Shown: positions 1,271 to 64,000 of the stretch, in pieces
How positions within the stretch are numbered: position 1 is the stretch's first letter
Layout: every line of letters starts with the position of its first letter
Assembly (NCBI GenBank): GCA_028277625.1
Contig: JANQFW010000089.1
Location: forward strand, 15,815-79,814
Direction: 5' to 3'
Length of the DNA: 64,000 nt
From: Candidatus Gastranaerophilales bacterium
GTDB taxonomy: Bacteria; Cyanobacteriota; Vampirovibrionia; Gastranaerophilales; JANQFW01
Notes under the pieces: generated by a model
Told to the model about the DNA's origin: nothing
The model's database searches: none
Seen by the model: the letters and a program-made list of their open reading frames with translations, nothing else
Translations under genes and position numbers: made by a program

Positions 1271-1502
1271 GTTTGTCTCCTCTAAAGAAAGTTTTTATTC
1301 CCATTTAATAATATTGTATAAAAAAATAAAATAAACAAAAAAATAATTTCCCAGCTAAATACATAAAAGTATAGGGAACTCATGTTCTTTTTTTAAACAA
1401 TGTGTATAATATTATATATCTATCAAAAGATCAGGAAGTATCAACAATAGTTATATCCATTATATTTAAAATAAAGTTTTTAGCGCGGGAGAACATCTAC
1501 TA

Positions 1503-3224
1503 ATGAAAAGCTTAACGATTGTTCAAAAGTTAATACTGGCATTTACTGCTATATTTTTAATGGCCCTTTTATTGGGGGCTGCAGGCTTATTGGGTGCCTT
1601 AAAGATATCCAATACATCTAAAAATATTTTAAATAAAGAAGCTTTTATCGTTAATTATTCATCACAGGCAAGGGCTTTATCTTTACACTTAAGACGATGT
1701 GAAAAAGATTCATTTTTAAACATTAATAACGAAAAAAAGAGAAAAAAGTACATAGAAAAATGGCATAAAAAATATGAAGAATTAAATACTGTATTAAACA
1801 AGCTAAATAAAAGATTAGCTAAACATAGCCTGGATGAGGATACTAAACTTGTAAACAAATGTATTTCCGGAGTACATGAGTATAAAAAAGCTTTTTTAAA
1901 AATACAAGATGATATAAATGCCGGCTTAATAACAACTCCAGCCGGAGGAAACAAAGCATTAAAACCATTTAAGGAGTACATAAGAGATGTGGATGTATCC
2001 TCTGCTGCTTTAGCAGAAAAATATGATGGCATCATAAACTCTGTTCATAAAAAAATAGATAACTCTTTAGGGTTAGTAATATCTTCAATTGCAGTATTAT
2101 TGCTAATAATTATAATCTCTATTGCAGTTATAAGCTTTTTGTTAATGAGGGCTATTAACACCCCCATAAGCCAACTAGTTAAAAGCTTATCAGAAGTTGC
2201 AAAGGGAGACTTTAGAAAAAAAATTATTGTTGATAATAATGACGAATTTGGTCATATAGCTAAGGCATCTGAATCTATGAGAAATGAGATTAGTAAACTA
2301 ATTATTGACATGACCTCTCAAATAGATTTTTTAAATAAAAATGCAAGTACAATGAGTACTTCTGTAAATCAAACTGTCGAAGGTAGCAATCAAATATCAC
2401 AAAGTATAGTACATCTTTCTACCAGTGCTACCGAACAAAATGAATTTGTGAGTGAAGTTGTCTCTCAATCTCAAAGTATTTCAAATGAATTATCAACTAT
2501 TTCAGATAAAATATCAGAAATAGTTGATTACTCGGAAAACAGTAAAAACAATAGCCAACAGGCTGAAAATGAAGCAAAAGAAGCCATTTTAAAGTTTAAC
2601 AACCTTAACAATTTGTCACTGGAGGCAACGAATACAATCAAGGTGCTTGGTAAAAAAGTTGAAGAAATAAGTGTAATAATAGAATTAATAAAAAATATAT
2701 CTAGTCAAACTAATTTACTTGCATTAAATGCCAGCATAGAAGCAGCAAGAGCCGGTGAGCAAGGTAAAGGATTTGCGGTTGTTGCGGAAGAGGTAAAAAA
2801 ACTTGCCGAAGAATCAGCAAAGGCTTCTAATCAAATTACTGGTATGATTAATGAGATTCAAGAAAAAACAGATCTATCAATTAAATGCATTGATGAAAAT
2901 GATAAAGAAATATGCAAGAGTTCTGAACTTGTCAACCATATAAGCAGCAATTTAGACCAGGTTTTAATTGATTCTAATAACATTAATCACAACATAATAA
3001 ATGTGTCTGATGTTATTAAAAATATAACGATGTATTCTAAAAATATAGAGTCGTCTATAGGAAAAATATACTCAACTTTTGAAGAAAATACTGTAGGAAT
3101 GGAAGAAGTATCTGCTATATCAGAAGAACAGGTAGCCAATATGAATGAAGTTAATGAAAGTATTACAAAGTTATCTAACTTAGCTACAAAGGTTAAAGAA
3201 AGCGTAGTATTTTTTAAGGTTTAG
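1503..3224 (+). CDS. methyl-accepting chemotaxis protein (two TM segments, HAMP-like linker, MCP signalling domain)
   Basis: 573-aa ORF with N-terminal and mid-protein hydrophobic segments. Carries the highly conserved MCP hairpin [37 protein letters not shown]. Confidence 0.9.
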
Positions 3225-3291
3225 ACGTTAAGTAATATTAAATACCTATAAAAACAAGCACTTTTTGTCTAAAAAAATACTTTATAATAGT

Positions 3292-3361
3292 GGGTAAAGG
3301 AAACACTGTTAAAGGTTGGTAAAAACCAAAGATTTAAAGGTGATTAACGTCACCTGTTTTT
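3292..3361 (+). ncRNA. candidate small RNA, family 1 copy A (about 70 nt)
   Basis: GCACTT (3258-3263)-N19-TATAAT (3283-3288), then the conserved 5' end GGGTAAAGG (3292-3300). Hairpin AGGTGA/TCACCT (3338-3355) plus T-run 3357-3361. Lies between convergent CDSs. Paralogous to 27410-27476 and 45029-45116. Confidence 0.5.
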
Positions 3362-3395
3362 ATTTTGTTCACTAATTTATAAAGCATTTATATAA

Positions 3396-5481: not shown

Positions 5482-5487
5482 TAAATT

Positions 5488-5570
5488 TTAAATTAATAAT
5501 TCTTTGCAGAAATCTATTTATAAAATAGTTATAAAGTAGTAAAATATTTAAAATAATAAAGGCAAATAAA
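5488..5570. repeat. 83-bp direct repeat, copy 1
   Basis: Identical to 7366-7448 except one base (A vs G in ...gcagaaAtct...), checked base by base. Confidence 0.9.
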
Positions 5571-6046: not shown

Positions 6047-6352
6047 TCAATCTTCTGAGTATACTTCCTTCAGGTCATCAGCCAATGCCACAGGAGTTGC
6101 AAAGGAAGATCCACATATACATGTTAATGCTTCATTTTTAGAGTTATCAGGGCTGTAAGAAATTTTATTACCCTTTTTAAGATTAATCACGAAACCGTTG
6201 TATATACTCCCTGTTCTGGAGTGAAAAACTTCAGGAATCAACTTTAATGGGTTAAATGAAAATTTTTTTTTATTAAGGGTTGAGGGTTCATCTTCTGTCT
6301 CACCTGACTCTTTTAAGAGGAATTTTCCTTTATTCAATATAGCTTCTTTCAT
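6047..6352 (-). CDS. hypothetical protein
   Basis: 101-aa ORF co-directional with its neighbours. No family recognised. Confidence 0.45.
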   Translation of the reverse strand: MKEAILNKGKFLLKESGETEDEPSTLNKKKFSFNPLKLIPEVFHSRTGSIYNGFVINLKKGNKISYSPDNSKNEALTCICGSSFATPVALADDLKEVYSED

Positions 6353-7313: not shown

Positions 7314-7365
7314 TACAACTATTATTATTAAATCAAAAAATATTTATATTTCATAATATTTAATG

Positions 7366-7448
7366 TTAAATTAATAATTCTTTGCAGAAGTCTATTTATA
7401 AAATAGTTATAAAGTAGTAAAATATTTAAAATAATAAAGGCAAATAAA
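7366..7448. repeat. 83-bp direct repeat, copy 2
   Basis: See 5488-5570. Its minus strand carries TACTTTATAAC, a -10-like motif 90-100 nt upstream of the CDS starting at 7313. Confidence 0.9.
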
Positions 7449-27243: not shown

Positions 27244-27409
27244 GTTTTTTCTTTTTATTTTTAGTAATTACTGTTTAATTTTACTAAAACCACGTCATCT
27301 ATTCTATTGAGTTTTATTAATTTTTTGTTTTTTAAAAATAAAGTTTAATATCTTGTAATGTTTTTATAAAAACAAGCAATTTATTGAAAAAAATATACTT
27401 TATAATATT

Positions 27410-27476
27410 GGGTAAAGGATACACTATAAAAGGTAGGTTAAAATCAAGTTTTAGATGCGAAAGCATCTTTTTTTTT
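27410..27476 (+). ncRNA. candidate small RNA, family 1 copy B (about 67 nt)
   Basis: GCAATT (27376-81)-N19-TATAAT (27401-06), 5' end GGGTAAAGG (27410-18), hairpin AGATGC-GAAA-GCATCT (27453-68) plus T9. Opposite strand to both flanking genes. Confidence 0.5.
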
Positions 27477-27506
27477 GTTTTTGTGATTTATTTATTGTGT
27501 TGATGC

Positions 27507-31533: not shown

Positions 31534-31702
31534 ACTGAGTAATAAAAACTTTTTATTATGTATTAAACTCATGCGAGAATTTAAGTAGTAAAAGATGTAG
31601 AACCTTTTATTCCTTACTTCCTTTGGTGTGTATTAATAAAAAAATAAAAAACATTTAAAAAGAATGGCAATTTTTCTTATGTATATAACTTTATATATAT
31701 AA

Positions 31703-31842
31703 GATAGGTAAAACGTTAAGATAGAGTATAAGTAGTATAACAAAAGACTTTCAACCAATATGTAAACCTATATATTAACCTACACACTTGCTAAAATCTT
31801 TAAACCATTCTTCTTGTTTTTATTTAACAAGAAGTTTTTTTT
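31703..31842 (+). ncRNA. candidate small RNA, family 2 copy A (about 140 nt)
   Basis: GCAATT (31667-72)-N19-TATATA (31692-97). 21-nt core ACCTACACACTTGCTAAAATC (31778-98) is identical to the minus strand of 54734-54. Terminator CTTCTTGTT/AACAAGAAG (31810-34) plus T8. Confidence 0.5.
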
Positions 31843-32338
31843 GTAAAGAAAAAGTCCCTTTTTTTTATTATTTTAAAGTTTTTTGGACTTTAAAAACTTG
31901 ATATGCTATATCTGTAATTATTATATATTTTAACATGTTTTCTAATGTTTTATAGAATTTATAGAGGTTTGCTGCATGATTTTACTGTATTTATTAATTA
32001 AAATATTTAAAATTTAAATAATCCAGGATTTATTCTTTATGTATTTGATCCTTTGCGTTATAATAATTATTGGTTTTTCTACATGTTATATTTAAAGAAA
32101 AATAATAATAAAACATATATTATAAATATTAGTGTTTATAATATATAACATTATCGATAGCTAACTTAAAACTTGTAAAGTATTGCTGGTTAATATTTAA
32201 AGGTTTTGCTTAGCTTTTAAGGTTACGAGTCAAGCCTGTTTATGCACTTTTTTAGTAGTTTTTGTTTTTTAATATATAATGAAGGTTAGTGTGTGATTAT
32301 TAGGTAAATTTATAAAAAGATAATTAAGGGTAGTTTCA

Positions 32339-43140: not shown

Positions 43141-43578
43141 CTAAACAGGTATTTTAAAATATCTTTGTTTTAATGTGTAACTAATATCTTCTAGCCATAA
43201 AAACCCTATTAATTTCTTTTTCCAAGGAACTTCAACTACTGGTAGGCACTTGTTTTTAAAGCATTTCATTGTTTCATATGCTTCATCTAAACTCATTCCT
43301 GGATAAAGAACAATTGGATAGTCGTACTGATAAGCCAAATCTTTTATTTGTGTATTTCTGATAATGCTTAAGTTTTGCTTTAATCTATCTTTTAGGATTC
43401 TTTTTAGTTTTGTTTTATTTATGTAGCCTAAAAGATAAGATTCTTTGTTTGTAATAGGAATATCCTCGACGTTAAAAAGCTTCATTTTCTCAAAAATATC
43501 GTAAATAGTGTCATTTTCGCAAACAAATACAGAGTCTTCTCTTGTATACTCTTTTACAATCCTTTTAGTCAAACCCAT
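43141..43578 (-). CDS. CBS-pair domain protein
   Basis: 145 aa with two CBS-like repeats (...V.ENDTIYDIFEKMKLFNVEDIPI.... and ...MSLDEAYETMKCFKNKCLPVV...). Confidence 0.65.
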   Translation of the reverse strand: MGLTKRIVKEYTREDSVFVCENDTIYDIFEKMKLFNVEDIPITNKESYLLGYINKTKLKRILKDRLKQNLSIIRNTQIKDLAYQYDYPIVLYPGMSLDEAYETMKCFKNKCLPVVEVPWKKKLIGFLWLEDISYTLKQRYFKIPV

Positions 43579-43888
43579 ATTAAATCCTCTCTATAATGAA
43601 GAAATTTTTGGTAAAAAAAGGTTAAATCCTTTTAAATTAGATTACAGTAGTAAATTAAACTAATCTTTTTTGAAAAACTATAAATGAAAGAATAAGAAAA
43701 AAGTCTTTATAAAGTATAACTCTTTTTTTGCTGAACCCATATTAAATCCTCTCTAAATGTGAAGAAATTTTTAGTAAAAAAAATATTAAATACTTTTAGG
43801 TAGATTATATTAATAAATTTAACTAATTTTTTTTTGAAAAACTATAAGTAAATAGGGTAAAAATATTTATAAAAAAAATATAACTTAC
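43572..43888. repeat. tandem duplication (period 162 bp) of the CBS-gene 5' leader, including the start codon
   Basis: Unit 1 is 43572-43733, unit 2 is 43734-about 43888. Both begin AACCCATATTAAATCCTCTCT (minus strand: AGAGAGGATTTAATATGGGTT = RBS + ATG GGT). Similarity stays recognisable across the units. Confidence 0.8.
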
Positions 43889-44032: not shown

Positions 44033-44965
44033 CTATAGTTCTTTTGTTATTTTAAAATGTAATTTTGCAATATTTCCAAGGTTATTTTTGTTGACATGTT
44101 GAATAAAATACCTGGCTTGATCTTTAACTTTTTGAGAGGAACCTTTGGGTAGCTCTACATTATATAGTTCGGAGAGCTTTTTTATTCTTTTAACAAATTC
44201 ATTTCTTGCTAAAATAGAAGCTGCTGCAACTGCAAGATCATCTTCTGCGCGGACTCTTTGCTCTAGATTTATATTTACACCTTTAGCTTTTAAGGCATTT
44301 TTTATTAAGGATTCATCTCCAAATTTATCAGAAAGGGCATTTTCGCATTCTTTTTTTTCTAATATATTTTCTATTACTCTGGCATGACCCCATGCAAGTA
44401 ATTTATTTAAGTTTTTAAAGCTTTCATATAGTTGATTGTATTTATCAGGATTTATCACAACAACTGAATTAATTGTGTTTTCTTTTATCTTAATTGCAAG
44501 TTTCTCTATATTTGAATCTGTTAGTTTTTTACTGTCTTGTACACCAAGGCTGTTTATGATTTCTTTATTTGTTTCATCAATGAGCACGCCTGCAACAACT
44601 AGTGGTCCAAAATAATCTCCCTTACCGGATTCATCTGTTCCTATCCAGCTGGAGTATTTATAGTGTTGATGTTCAATTAAGCTAGCTTGTGTAACTTGTT
44701 CTTGGAGAGTTATGTTAAGGTAATTAGCAAGAAAATATTTTGTATTTTTTCCTTGAACCAGAATTTTGCCACTATTATATAAAGTAATAGTTATTCCAGA
44801 GCCTTGAGCTCGCCAGAATGCGTGATTCATTGGCTTTAGTTCAAATCCGTTACTTTTAAGTTTTTCTTTTAATTCTTTTTCTTTTTTTAAGTCATATTTT
44901 GAACTATAACAATTATTTCCGTTTGTTCCCACAGTGAAAGAACCTTTTTTAAAATCTACTCCCAA
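44033..44965 (-). CDS. rnhC: ribonuclease HIII
   Basis: 310 aa. About 85-aa N-terminal domain followed by WIGTDESGKGDYFGPLVVAGV, the RNase HIII variant of the HII-family active site. Confidence 0.85.
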   Translation of the reverse strand: MGVDFKKGSFTVGTNGNNCYSSKYDLKKEKELKEKLKSNGFELKPMNHAFWRAQGSGITITLYNSGKILVQGKNTKYFLANYLNITLQEQVTQASLIEHQHYKYSSWIGTDESGKGDYFGPLVVAGVLIDETNKEIINSLGVQDSKKLTDSNIEKLAIKIKENTINSVVVINPDKYNQLYESFKNLNKLLAWGHARVIENILEKKECENALSDKFGDESLIKNALKAKGVNINLEQRVRAEDDLAVAAASILARNEFVKRIKKLSELYNVELPKGSSQKVKDQARYFIQHVNKNNLGNIAKLHFKITKEL

Positions 44966-45028
44966 TCAAGAATGTTAAACTAAAAATTATCTAAAGTAAA
45001 ACAAAATAAAACTGTTTTAGAACAAAAT

Positions 45029-45116
45029 AAAAAAGGTTCTTTCAGAACCCCATCGTTAGCACATTACCAAATTTTCATTAAATTTTTTTACTTTACCTTA
45101 CCTTTTTTTTTTACCC
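45029..45116 (-). ncRNA. candidate small RNA / leader, family 1 copy C (about 88 nt)
   Basis: Minus strand: GCATTT (45145-50)-N19-TATAAT (45120-25), 5' end GGGTAAAAAAAAAAGG, hairpin GGTTC-TGAAA-GAACC (45035-49) plus T6. Ends about 65 nt upstream of, and co-directional with, rnhC. Confidence 0.45.
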
Positions 45117-45193
45117 AATATTATAAAGTATTTATTTTATTAAAAAATGCGTATTTTTATAAAAATATTAATAAAAATAAATAAAAAATTTTT

Positions 45194-54522: not shown

Positions 54523-54692
54523 CGGATTTAATGTAAACAACTATATTAAGAGAAAGTTAACTATATCCTGTCTTGCTAAAAAAAATACAAGAATAAAGGC
54601 TTATTTATGGACTGTACCGTTTCAGTTTTAACTAGATAGCTTCTAATATTTAAGCTCTTATTGTAAAAACATATATGACTATTGGTTAATAC

Positions 54693-54797
54693 AAAAAAAA
54701 CTTCTTGTTGGGTGAAACAAGAAGGGAATTAAGGATTTTAGCAAGTGTGTAGGTAGTATATATAATATGGTTTTATTGGAGTTTTGTTGTATCTTAT
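54693..54797 (-). ncRNA. candidate small RNA, family 2 copy B (about 100 nt)
   Basis: Minus strand: GCAATT (54826-31)-N19-TATATA (54801-06), 21-nt core (54734-54) identical to copy A, terminator CTTCTTGTT/AACAAGAAG (54701-24) plus T8 (54693-700). Confidence 0.5.
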
Positions 54798-54981
54798 GTA
54801 TATATAAAGTTATTTACTTTAAAAAAATTGCTTAATTTAAAAAAAAATTTTGATTAGTGCTTTCTAATTTTTAATAAAAAAATGGTGATGTATTTAACAA
54901 CATCACCTGTTTGGTATTTTCCGCCTTTGTGTTTGCCTTATGGTCTCTTCTTCCAATATTTAATTAAATATTTTTAGATAA

Positions 54982-62278: not shown

Positions 62279-62316
62279 AAGTTTTTTTAAAATAAAATAA
62301 TTATTTTTATTTTTTG

Positions 62317-62400
62317 GGCAATTTAGAAATTGTTTTTGTTTTTATAATATTGTGAGATAAGTGAGAGCCAAAGTGGGTATAATTATTATTTAATTTGTGT
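62317..62400 (+). repeat. duplicated promoter/leader block, copy 1
   Basis: GGCAATTTAGAAATTGTTTTTGTTTTTATAATATTGTGAGATAAGTGAGAG...GGGTATAATT aligns with 63116-63200. Contains GCAATT (62318-23)-N19-TATAAT (62343-48). Confidence 0.6.
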
Positions 62401-62505
62401 TCAAAAAATGTAAAATTTAAATAATTATCCAACTGTAACATTTTTAAGCTTTTATTTATTTTTTGTAAAGATGAGGTAGTTTTAAAAGGTGTAGGAGGTA
62501 CACAA

Positions 62506-62916
62506 ATGGCAGTATCAGGTATGAATTCTGGACGTACTTACTCTGGAGAGGTTATGGATTTTTTAAAAGGAGGATTTAAGGATAAAAAAGCTTTGTTTGG
62601 TCAGGCGAAAGATTTTATAGCGTTAAAAGATACAGATAAAAATGGAACGATTTCAAAGGAGGAAGCCTTATTTAAAACTAAAGGCAAGATGCAACATGAT
62701 ATAGAAAAAATGTTTAAAAGAGTTGACCTGGATAAAGATGGTGAGCTTGATTATAAAGAGCTGGCATCCTTCAAGTTTTCGGCAGATGTAGATAGAAATA
62801 ATAATGTTACTAATAAAGAAGCGACAAATGCTTATGATGTTTCGATTGATGGTAAAGAAGGCTTTGTTAAAAATATATTAAGAAGTGCTTATACTCTTTT
62901 GGATTTAGGCTCTTAG
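62506..62916 (+). CDS. EF-hand calcium-binding protein
   Basis: Three canonical 12-residue loops: DTDKNGTISKEE, DLDKDGELDYKE, DVDRNNNVTNKE. GTAGGAGG RBS. Confidence 0.75.
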   Translation: MAVSGMNSGRTYSGEVMDFLKGGFKDKKALFGQAKDFIALKDTDKNGTISKEEALFKTKGKMQHDIEKMFKRVDLDKDGELDYKELASFKFSADVDRNNNVTNKEATNAYDVSIDGKEGFVKNILRSAYTLLDLGS

Positions 62917-63115
62917 TTTTTTATTAAATATCACAAGGTATTAAATAATTAGCATAAAGTAATTACTTTTATATATCTTAAGGTAAAAAGCTATAATATT
63001 AGTAAGTATTCAAGTTACCATTAATAAGATTTATTAGGAAATAAAACTATAGATATAAAAATTCATCCCCTTTGAGATACAAATCAAAGGGGATTAGTCA
63101 TATGGTATTCAGTTT

Positions 63116-63200
63116 GGCAATTTAGAAGTTTATTTTGTTTTTATAATATTGTAAGGTAGTGAGGATTAAATATGGTATAATTGGTATTCAGCTTGTGTAT
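63116..63200 (+). repeat. duplicated promoter/leader block, copy 2
   Basis: GGCAATTTAGAAGTTTATTTTGTTTTTATAATATTGTAAGGTAGTGAGG...TGGTATAATT. Contains GCAATT (63117-22)-N19-TATAAT (63142-47). A weak AAGCTT/AAGCTT hairpin plus T8 follows at 63231-63259. Confidence 0.6.
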
Positions 63201-63319
63201 TAAAGAAAATAAATAATAAGTAAAGTTAGTAAGCTTGAAATATTTTTAAGCTTTTTTTTATTAATTTTGCATATATTTGACTTTTAAAAAGTGAATCTTA
63301 ATAGATAGGAGTTTTTAGT

Positions 63320-64000
63320 ATGTTAACTGGTATTTCTTTGGATAAAGGTAGGATACAAAAAGCATTCAAGGTCGTTGAAAATAATTTTGATTATTTTGAC
63401 ACAGTAGGAGGAGGAGAAGAGGATAGTGTATTTAATCTTTCTAGTATAGCAGTTGCAGCAATAGATGAAAATGCAGATAAAAGTATTAAAGAAGCTGCAA
63501 TGATTCTCTTAAGTAATCAGTACTTTTTAAACTCTTTCCTGAATGAAAAAAAAGAAAAATATCCTATAAAAGAAGATGTAGAGGGGATGTTAGACTTATA
63601 TTTGACTGATTGGTATTTTAATATTTCAGATGAAGAGGACGGTAAGCGAGACGGTAAAATTCATAAGTCTGTTATGCCCAAGAATCCATTTAATAGTGCT
63701 ACTTCTAACGATGATGTCTACAAGGGGGGGGGCTTTTCTCAAGAAATGCTTGATGATATAAGCAAGGATGATGATTATATAACAAAAGATGAATTGTTAA
63801 TGTTTGAAAAATCATTGAGAGGGTTTAGTAAACATGACATCGAAAATTTTGATAAGTCGTTCTCTAAACATATTAGTGATGGAAAAGTGGAAAGTTTAAT
63901 AGGATATAACCATTTTGCAACGGCACTAGTTGCTCTTAATGATAAGTCTATAGGTAAAAAAATTATTAAGGAATCTATAAAAAGAGGTGAAGGAGGATTT
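63320..64000 (+). CDS. hypothetical acidic protein with degenerate EF-hand-like loops (partial, runs off the right edge)
   Basis: ATG at 63320 after a GGAG RBS. I read 227 codons to the window end with no stop. Absent from the ORF track because no stop is reached. Contains a G9 run at 63724-63732. Confidence 0.5.
   Translation, partial: MLTGISLDKGRIQKAFKVVENNFDYFDTVGGGEEDSVFNLSSIAVAAIDENADKSIKEAAMILLSNQYFLNSFLNEKKEKYPIKEDVEGMLDLYLTDWYFNISDEEDGKRDGKIHKSVMPKNPFNSATSNDDVYKGGGFSQEMLDDISKDDDYITKDELLMFEKSLRGFSKHDIENFDKSFSKHISDGKVESLIGYNHFATALVALNDKSIGKKIIKESIKRGEGGF

Follow-up and report, generated by a model that had tools for sequence, protein, structure and literature searches.

A 64,000-nucleotide stretch of a Candidatus Gastranaerophilales genome (GenBank assembly GCA_028277625.1, contig JANQFW010000089.1, positions 15,815 to 79,814 of the forward strand; G+C content 31.5%), termed the window below, carries three copies, named A, B and C, of a short unit in which a promoter-like block is closely followed by an intrinsic terminator. 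On balance, these three loci appear to be paralogous sibling genes for small RNAs (sRNAs), each with its own promoter and terminator, and the mode of action favored for their products is that of a decoy acting in trans.

The units share an exact 21-mer, TACTTTATAATAKTGGGTAAA, which occurs at 3278-3298 (+), 27396-27416 (+) and 45130-45110 (-), compared to 0.03 sites expected from dinucleotide shuffles (0 of 100 shuffles reach three). When up to three mismatches are allowed, the window contains no site beyond these three. Upstream, the block TATAAAAAYAMGCANTTT can be aligned without gaps across all three copies at a fixed distance, and each copy has the arrangement GCAnTT-N19-TATAAT. Downstream, a terminator that works in one direction follows 57-79 nucleotides (nt) further on. 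A preliminary description of the window had reported these three common features, the 21-mer, the upstream block and a hairpin with a T-run, and all of them are present where it placed them. It had also drawn the box with a trailing GG; the box is found in all three copies, while the trailing GG is found only in A and B. In addition, the conserved unit is slightly larger than was first described (limits in Table 1).

Distribution and conservation of the family

Relatives of the unit were sought with ACTTTATAATANTGGGTAAA in one genome per species (185,579 species). This search returned 11 stretches, 7 of which hold the whole unit, with 9 exact-box copies. All 7 belong to two Candidatus Gastranaerophilales metagenome-assembled genomes (MAGs), PL23b_bin.96 (JANQHM01) and PL25a_bin.58 (JANQLL01), which are collinear with the window at ~80-83% DNA identity and are the only close relatives found; the remaining 4 stretches are chance matches within unrelated sequence. 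Two copies with a single variant in the box were located by the synteny of neighboring genes, at loci L045 (ACTTTATATAATTGGG) and L049 (TATAATCTTGGG). The family thus comprises 13 copies: three in the window, six in PL25a_bin.58 and four in PL23b_bin.96. The copies represent three body subtypes and at least five locus types, with those of the relatives in at least four syntenic groups (Table 1; locus L004 is from PL25a_bin.58, and L001, L008 and L050 are from PL23b_bin.96). Common to all copies are the promoter module, the first seven bases of the predicted transcript, AAAGGU-type motifs and the terminator, and most copies also have the tail TTTTTATTTTG(TTC). At L004 (1414-1751, -), two complete promoter-RNA-terminator units that differ by a few bases lie 180 nt apart, and the syntenic site at L001 has a single unit.

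As far as can be seen, the family is confined to one narrow clade of three closely related MAGs. The 30 matches in the Joint Genome Institute (JGI) metagenome set are all due to chance and none has the GCA box, and no related sequence was found in viral contigs, phage records or plasmid records. In relatives with 60-64% protein identity (at the methyltransferase) and 71% (at ProB), the element was not found at the corresponding loci. An nhmmer profile of the promoter revealed no extra divergent copies in the window or in the sampled loci of relatives.

Within the clade, the unit is better conserved than its surroundings. Across the three genomes, 67-80% of the columns are invariant in the promoter and 75-82% in the RNA, compared to 38-60% in the flanks just outside. 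When copy A is aligned with its orthologues L003 and L008, 80% of the promoter is invariant in all three, and the value for body and terminator is 75% compared to 42% downstream. Copy C contains a 31-nt block that does not vary among the C-type orthologues of three genomes. Moreover, the orthologous positions are stable along one syntenic stretch of 40-50 kilobases (kb) in the three genomes. The initial picture of an autonomous promoter, a short and presumably transcribed non-coding RNA and an intrinsic terminator is strengthened by these orthologues in two genomes and by the higher conservation of the unit over its flanks.

The unit is also independent of its neighbors. The chemoreceptor gene upstream of copy A (1341-3227) is absent from L003 and L008, and the unit is kept. 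In these two loci the A-type unit borders on the sequence upstream of a tRNA synthetase gene of class I (Trp/Tyr). The chemoreceptor gene, of the methyl-accepting chemotaxis type, is missing from the collinear contigs of both MAGs together with its own upstream region, and the indel ends ~6 nt before the copy A unit. Copy B occupies the yidD-proB spacer of the window and of L049, and is absent from L050, where the empty site is a 71-nt spacer with 28 unrelated nt, including another hairpin, in place of the unit. These presence and absence differences, of the gene upstream of A and of copy B itself, indicate that the unit is autonomous. No target-site duplication was seen when the filled sites (window, L049) were compared to the empty one (L050), and a scan of the three units and their flanks for shared terminal inverted repeats gave only AT-rich chance pairs that differ from copy to copy. 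These results speak against the possibility raised at the outset, that the copies are internal parts of a longer mobile repeat with such ends.

Copies A and C start ~10-30 nt past the stop codon of a co-oriented gene and use its only terminator. The next downstream gene is convergent in three of the five locus types, and there the unit cannot be a leader. This agrees with the earlier argument against a 5′ leader at copy A, given that its unit is independent of the upstream gene and the next gene is convergent. Its description as lying between convergent genes holds for this genome and not for the relatives, both of which lack the upstream chemoreceptor gene.

Each of the three window copies has a hairpin followed by a T-run, as expected of a Rho-independent terminator, on the strand of the element only; shuffles give 0.1-0.2 terminator-like sites per 600 nt. 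In a copy A orthologue, a T.G pair of the stem is replaced by C-G. The subtype-i helix is 87.8% paired compared to 65.9% in shuffles, and its covariation score is 0.68 compared to 0.27 (0 of 500 shuffles reach either value), with pairing statistics that are inflated because the register of the alignment was set from the hairpins and that come from related sequences. Both-sided changes are seen in five of the seven pairs of this helix, and all slid registers of the alignment collapse. That both-sided stem changes keep the pairing supports the selection on the terminator that was proposed at first. Hairpins of another sequence, GGTGAT(A/G)(A/G)TCATCAC(C) with T-run flanks, are located at the empty B site (L050, 2900-2930) and just past the A-type unit of L008 (~6150-6166). 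These hairpins of PL23b_bin.96 may represent another recurrent terminator type or a remnant.

The terminator hairpin is the sole recurring structure. The bodies that precede it fold no better than dinucleotide shuffles (z = +0.19 for copy A, -0.21 and -0.20 for the others) and are composed of 45.5% A, 26% G, 21% U and 8% C. With one representative per paralogue and the shared 5′ end excluded, AAAGGU occurs 7 times (0.28 expected), AAGGU 8 times (0.65 expected) and GGAAAC 4 times (0.09 expected). GGA is found once in subtype i, two or three times in subtype iii and not at all in subtype ii. Between copy C and L009, the number of motifs is kept while their spacing drifts.

Transcripts of this type would probably be non-coding. 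The preliminary description stated that they have no open reading frame (ORF), which is not strictly correct, since every copy has an ORF of 8-31 codons that begins at a TTG or GTG within the box. The frame is not conserved, as indels shift it among close copies, and there is no AUG and no Shine-Dalgarno (SD) sequence. The description was right that the RNAs resemble no known family. A search of the whole window with Rfam 15 (4227 models) gave 0 matches at gathering thresholds, and a search of each copy at E<=10 gave only sub-threshold chance matches, the best being sraA with 20.7 bits compared to a gathering score of 56.

A promoter class shared with other predicted transcription units

The promoter modules combine an ordinary element with an unusual one. 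Every window copy has a perfect TATAAT, overlapping TAATAT, as expected of a sigma-70-type -10 element. The GCAnTTT box further upstream is not a -35 element by the usual definition. In the window, GCA[ACT]TT-N19-TAnAnT has 7 matches (1.3 expected), and GCAnTT-N19-TATAWW has 8 (2.1 expected). The promoter of L049, the orthologue of copy B, differs by the one change given above. At L045, an AT to TA swap breaks the first hexamer and makes a perfect TATAAT 2 nt further downstream, which is the pattern that selection for a -10 element would give.

The same arrangement is found in front of the leaders of two protein genes and of a second sRNA-like family, F2; the box thus marks a promoter class. 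Judged from these sequences, it probably serves as a binding site for an activator or an alternative sigma factor rather than as part of a mobile repeat, and its presence on all siblings points to co-regulation. By comparison with consensus sequences, three candidate sigma factors were rejected: for sigma-54 the GG and GC dinucleotides are not conserved, and for SigB-type GGGTAA and cyanobacterial SigF (TAGGC...GGTAA) the spacing is wrong (33 nt in the case of SigF).

The two leaders, at 62314-62505 and 63113-63319 (+), are paralogous, ~160-200 nt long, and have in common the promoter GGCAATTTAGAA..TTTTTATAATATTGT as well as further blocks (repeat families D16 and D11). They may form a cis-regulatory leader family. 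The gene that starts at 63320 downstream of the second leader is unannotated. The two F2 copies share AACTTTATA with the first family and contain a near-identical 26-nt block, ACCTACACACTTGCTAAAATC(T/C)TTAA; F2 has no Rfam match. Pairing between the two families was considered and rejected, as an 8-nt match (GUAGGUUA with UAACCUAC) is no better than in shuffles (best case 26/200).

Table 1. Features of the window and body subtypes of the sRNA-like family
Feature	Coordinates	Strand	Details
Copy A, conserved unit	3234-3367	+	
Copy A, promoter module	3234-3291	+	GCA box 3258-3263; A-tract; -10 TATAAT 3283-3288, overlapping alternative TAATAG 3285-3290
Copy A, predicted sRNA	3292-3361	+	~70 nt; predicted 5′ end +/-3 nt; unstructured purine-rich body 3292-3337 with GUAAAGGAAAC and UUAAAGGUUGG
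Copy A, intrinsic terminator	3338-3366	+	AGGTGAT-TAAC-GTCACCT, then GTTTTTATTTT; hairpin 3338-3355, 7 base pairs (bp)
Copy B, conserved unit	27352-27482	+	
Copy B, promoter module	27352-27409	+	GCA box 27376-27381; -10 27401-27406
Copy B, predicted sRNA	27410-27477	+	~67 nt; antisense to the yidD-proB spacer
Copy B, terminator	27453-27468	+	AGATGC-GAAA-GCATCT, 6 bp, then T-run
Copy C, conserved unit	45174-45023	-	
Copy C, promoter module	45117-45174	-	GCA box 45150-45145; -10 45125-45120
Copy C, predicted sRNA (subtype ii)	45023-45116	-	~93 nt; A/G-rich 5′ part, invariant block AAAAUUUGGUAAUGUGCUAACGAUGGGGUUC (~45078-45048), terminator
Copy C, terminator	45051-45033	-	8 bp, then T-run
Leader of EF-hand gene, same promoter class	62318-62348	+	GGCAATT-N19-TATAAT-ATTG; gene 62506-62916; not a family member
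Second leader, same promoter class	63117-63147	+	in front of the gene starting at 63320
F2 copy 1	31667-31846	+	GCAATT-N19-TATATA promoter; body ~130 nt; predicted RNA ~110-140 nt; block ACCTACACACTTGCTAAAATC; terminator CTTCTTGTT...AACAAGAAG, then T8
F2 copy 2	54655-54831	-	second sRNA-like family, same promoter class
Subtype i			A = L003 = L008; B = L049; L002 = L007; body GGGUAAAGGAAACAC-N-UUAAAGGUAGGUAAA...
Subtype ii			C = L009 = L045; body GGGUAAA(A/G)n GGUAA..GGU.AAG..., then private block UUUGGUAAUGUGCUAACGAUGGGG
Subtype iii			L001 = L004 (L004 tandemly duplicated); body GGGUAAAAACGACAGGAAACGGAAA...

Three further sequences were observed. An 87-nt intergenic direct repeat, 98% identical, occurs at 5484-5570 and 7362-7448, 1.9 kb apart, and contains TTTGCAGAAATC...TTATAAAGT; this similarity is far above that of any other non-coding sequence in the window. 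A tandem duplication of ~115 nt (43563-43677 and 43725-43840) upstream of a CBS-domain gene (43141-43578, -) repeats the first codons and the ribosome-binding region of that gene, and is also found in L009. Finally, in a relative with 64% protein identity (L048, 1535-1731), the spacer past the orthologous methyltransferase gene opens with GAGCAATTTTTCATAAT and continues G+C-rich and hairpin-rich until the contig ends inside it. It looks like a different structured RNA.

Candidate mechanisms

If the loci are sibling sRNA genes, each would be transcribed from its own promoter, formed by the perfect -10 and the conserved non-canonical GCAnTTT box ~37 nt upstream of the predicted start, and all siblings would probably be co-regulated by one factor through this common box. 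The product would be a non-coding RNA of 55-95 nt, which would begin at or near GGGUAAA and end in the U-run of its own Rho-independent terminator. Its working part would be the 5′ two-thirds, predicted to be single-stranded, very purine-rich and C-poor, with 2-5 SD-like AAAGGU(A)/AAGGA motifs per RNA for which the number, and not the exact spacing, would be kept. Some subtypes, e.g., that of copy C, would add a private conserved module. The RNA would then offer its repeated motifs in trans, as a decoy, to a common partner, which would be either a protein that binds RNA or a CU-rich RNA with the sequence ACCUUU. A decoy is favored because one short motif recurs, because its number is conserved over its spacing and because structure is absent. 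As a mechanism it is a tentative choice, placed slightly ahead of antisense pairing.

A bolder proposal, and a rather doubtful one, is that of a lineage-specific regulon of non-photosynthetic Melainabacteria. Here, a dedicated transcription or sigma factor at the GCAATTT box would drive both RNA families, and the RNAs would be SD-mimicking decoys that titrate the partner of AAAGGU. As this partner, either a non-CsrA RNA-binding protein or the anti-SD sequence and 30S subunit of the ribosome would come into question. An SD-mimicking role had also been raised in the preliminary description, likewise as speculation.

Several observations weigh against sibling sRNA genes that act as decoys. In copies A-C, no TTGACA-like hexamer is present 16-18 nt upstream of the -10 element, and for this reason a simple sigma-70 scan misses all three promoters. 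The same window has a canonical-looking TTTACA-N16-TATTAT upstream of rpmH, which means that the organism probably uses ordinary promoters too. The 5′ end of the predicted RNA was placed from the -10 element alone, and the inflation of the helix statistics pointed out above belongs here as well. The preliminary description counted three AAAGG motifs in copy A; two lie in the body, and the third (UUUAAAGGUGA) is merely the 5′ flank of the terminator, being one side of its stem. The motif carries GGU more often than GGA and does not lie in loops. A search of ~200 kb of the lineage, a small part of a genome, by regular expression and tblastn gave no match to csrA, hfq or fliW. Lastly, the very narrow spread of the family, with no copy at 60-71% protein identity, implies that it could be young and weakly constrained.

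Among the other explanations, classical antisense sRNAs are the most serious, being possible though still unlikely. Such RNAs would pair with mRNAs through one contiguous seed and alter their translation or stability; the seed would be the 5′ end common to the siblings (GGGUAAAGG...) or a subtype block such as UUUGGUAAUGUGCUAACGAUGGGG of copy C, and the AAAGGU repeats would be incidental. Among bacterial sRNAs that end in a terminator, and among sibling families, antisense pairing is the commonest mode of action. Within each subtype the 5′ ends are conserved, and the invariant 31-nt block of the C-type orthologues, which is of mixed composition, resembles a constrained seed or structure. However, across 57 translation-initiation regions of the window, shuffled sRNAs form stronger best duplexes than the predicted RNAs do, TACCTTT is absent from 58 window 5′ regions, and the window holds no complement longer than 10 nt outside the elements. 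Since only ~3% of a genome is covered, these target negatives are weak. In addition, purine-rich seeds cannot pair with SD sequences.

It is improbable that the units are a functionless dispersed repeat, whether a cassette like a miniature inverted-repeat transposable element or one spread by recombination, or transcriptional insulators with a by-product transcript. Such an origin would fit the ends of the unit, which are more conserved than its middle, and the sharing of box and tail (TTTTTATTTTGTTC) by subtypes with unrelated bodies; presence/absence polymorphism, the tandem duplication at L004 and the narrow distribution would fit as well. It is contradicted by the lack of common terminal inverted repeats and of a target-site duplication, by merely 4-6 copies per genome, by positions that are stable over three genomes and by bodies conserved as much as or more than the coding flanks.

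A strict sponge of the CsrA/RsmA type, in which the GG motifs would be A(N)GGA sites titrating a CsrA homologue, is somewhat less probable again. Each RNA has several GG motifs 5-25 nt apart, AAGGA occurs once in subtype i, and subtype iii contains CAGGAAACGGAAAC. CsrA-FliW is often found alongside flagella, and the organism is probably motile, as a chemoreceptor is encoded in the window. The CsrA-type role that the preliminary description had mentioned as speculation nevertheless does not hold up well: AAAGGU is the motif that recurs and is enriched, GGA is entirely missing from subtype ii (copy C, L009 and L045), and the unstructured bodies leave no motif in a hairpin loop. The failure to find csrA and fliW in the ~200 kb searched also argues against it.

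It is less probable still that the units are cis-acting parts of their neighbors, i.e., the 3′ untranslated region (3′-UTR) or terminator of the upstream gene (the chemoreceptor for A, the methyltransferase for C) or a leader or attenuator (of rnhC for C, and of a glycosyltransferase-like gene for L001 and L004). In copies A and C no other terminator lies between the upstream stop codon and the unit, and read-through transcripts would therefore end at the terminator of the unit. The 3′ arm and tail of the C terminator are also perfectly complementary, over 17 nt, to the ribosome-binding region of rnhC 76 nt downstream. On the other side, the gene upstream of A is absent in both relatives where the unit is kept, copy B is without any co-oriented neighbor, the gene that follows is convergent in three of the five locus types, and the complementarity to rnhC falls to 12-13 of 17 positions in L009 and L045. 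The 17-nt perfect inverted repeat pairs 44935-44951, in the SD region before the likely rnhC start, with 45028-45044, which covers the loop, 3′ arm and U-tail of the C terminator (UGAAAGAACCUUUUUUA); the match is probably not conserved. The RNase HIII gene (start region 44930-44965, -) probably starts at the GTG at 44932-44930 rather than at the TTG at 44965; in L045, a stop interrupts the upstream frame and the equivalent GTG is the called start.

Least probable of all are tiny protein genes, in which the TTG or GTG of the box would start a leaderless ORF (MGKGNTVKGW*, MGKKKKVR*, MGKNDRKRKR*, etc.): TTG/GTG-GGT-AAA is in frame in every copy and a few differences look synonymous (ACT/ACA between A and L003, CGG/AGG between the two L004 copies), but the start lies 1-2 nt past the -10 hexamer and thus upstream of any plausible transcription start, AUG and SD are absent, indels break the frame among close relatives (ATTAAAGG in L002 and L007 compared to ATTTAAAGG in L008), and an ORF length of 8-31 codons compares with the one stop per ~10 codons expected at 31% GC.

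Relation to known small RNA families

Families of sibling sRNAs with a common regulated promoter include the CiaR-dependent csRNAs of streptococci, LhrC1-5 of Listeria and Qrr1-5 of Vibrio. The units described here have the same general organization, with several short (~60-150 nt) paralogous genes per genome, some of them in tandem (L004), and a common promoter architecture that includes a sibling-conserved upstream box distinct from a -35 element, as well as an intrinsic terminator. As in LhrC, which has UCCC motifs, short single-stranded motifs are reiterated. Unlike in these families, the motifs are purine-rich and SD-like (AAAGGU) rather than CU-rich and anti-SD, and it follows that the usual mechanism of blocking the ribosome-binding site (RBS) cannot apply. 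Moreover, the present family gave no sequence or Rfam similarity to csRNA, LhrC or Qrr and is seen in three genomes only.

The cyanobacterial Yfr2-5 also belong among such families. They are widely conserved and share a promoter element, CGRE1, that is bound by a GntR regulator (PMC6191309). The hosts of Yfr2 are oxygenic cyanobacteria, a sister lineage, and the resemblance noted here is one of architecture (PMC6191309, PMC6778093).

Two other kinds of regulators share certain features. As in CsrB/CsrC and RsmX/Y/Z, function would rest on the multiplicity of a short GG motif and not on one long seed, the paralogues have a common upstream activating box, and motif number prevails over spacing. 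The RNAs predicted here are much shorter, with 2-6 motifs compared to up to ~20, and their motif is AAAGGU, located outside hairpin loops, instead of A(N)GGA. Similar to 3′-UTR sRNAs of the DapZ/MicL type, which have a promoter of their own, copies A and C directly follow a co-oriented gene and end at its only terminator. Their promoter, however, is in the spacer and not within the preceding coding sequence, relatives that lack the upstream gene keep the unit, and no co-oriented gene precedes copy B or the L002/L007 type.

The sequence comparisons thus indicate a real and well-delimited family of predicted sRNA genes that matches no described RNA family and is of an ordinary kind among bacterial regulators. 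Its unusual points are the purine-rich SD-like repeats, opposite in polarity to the CU-rich seeds that sRNAs usually have, and the common non-canonical promoter class. If the RNAs are functional, standard RBS occlusion is unlikely. At present, the family has the value of a well-supported candidate and not of the discovery of a principle.

The hosts belong to the Melainabacteria/Vampirovibrionia, the non-photosynthetic sister group of the cyanobacteria, which are common in animal guts. A literature search for small RNA, non-coding RNA and CsrA in Melainabacteria and Gastranaerophilales found no paper on riboregulators. The regulon outlined above, if true, would be a new titration system and would provide the first riboregulators described in this phylum-level lineage. 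The sharp promoter class, with 4-6 siblings per genome and a second family on the same promoter, offers an entry point for the mining of metatranscriptomes and for finding the regulator of the GCAATTT box.

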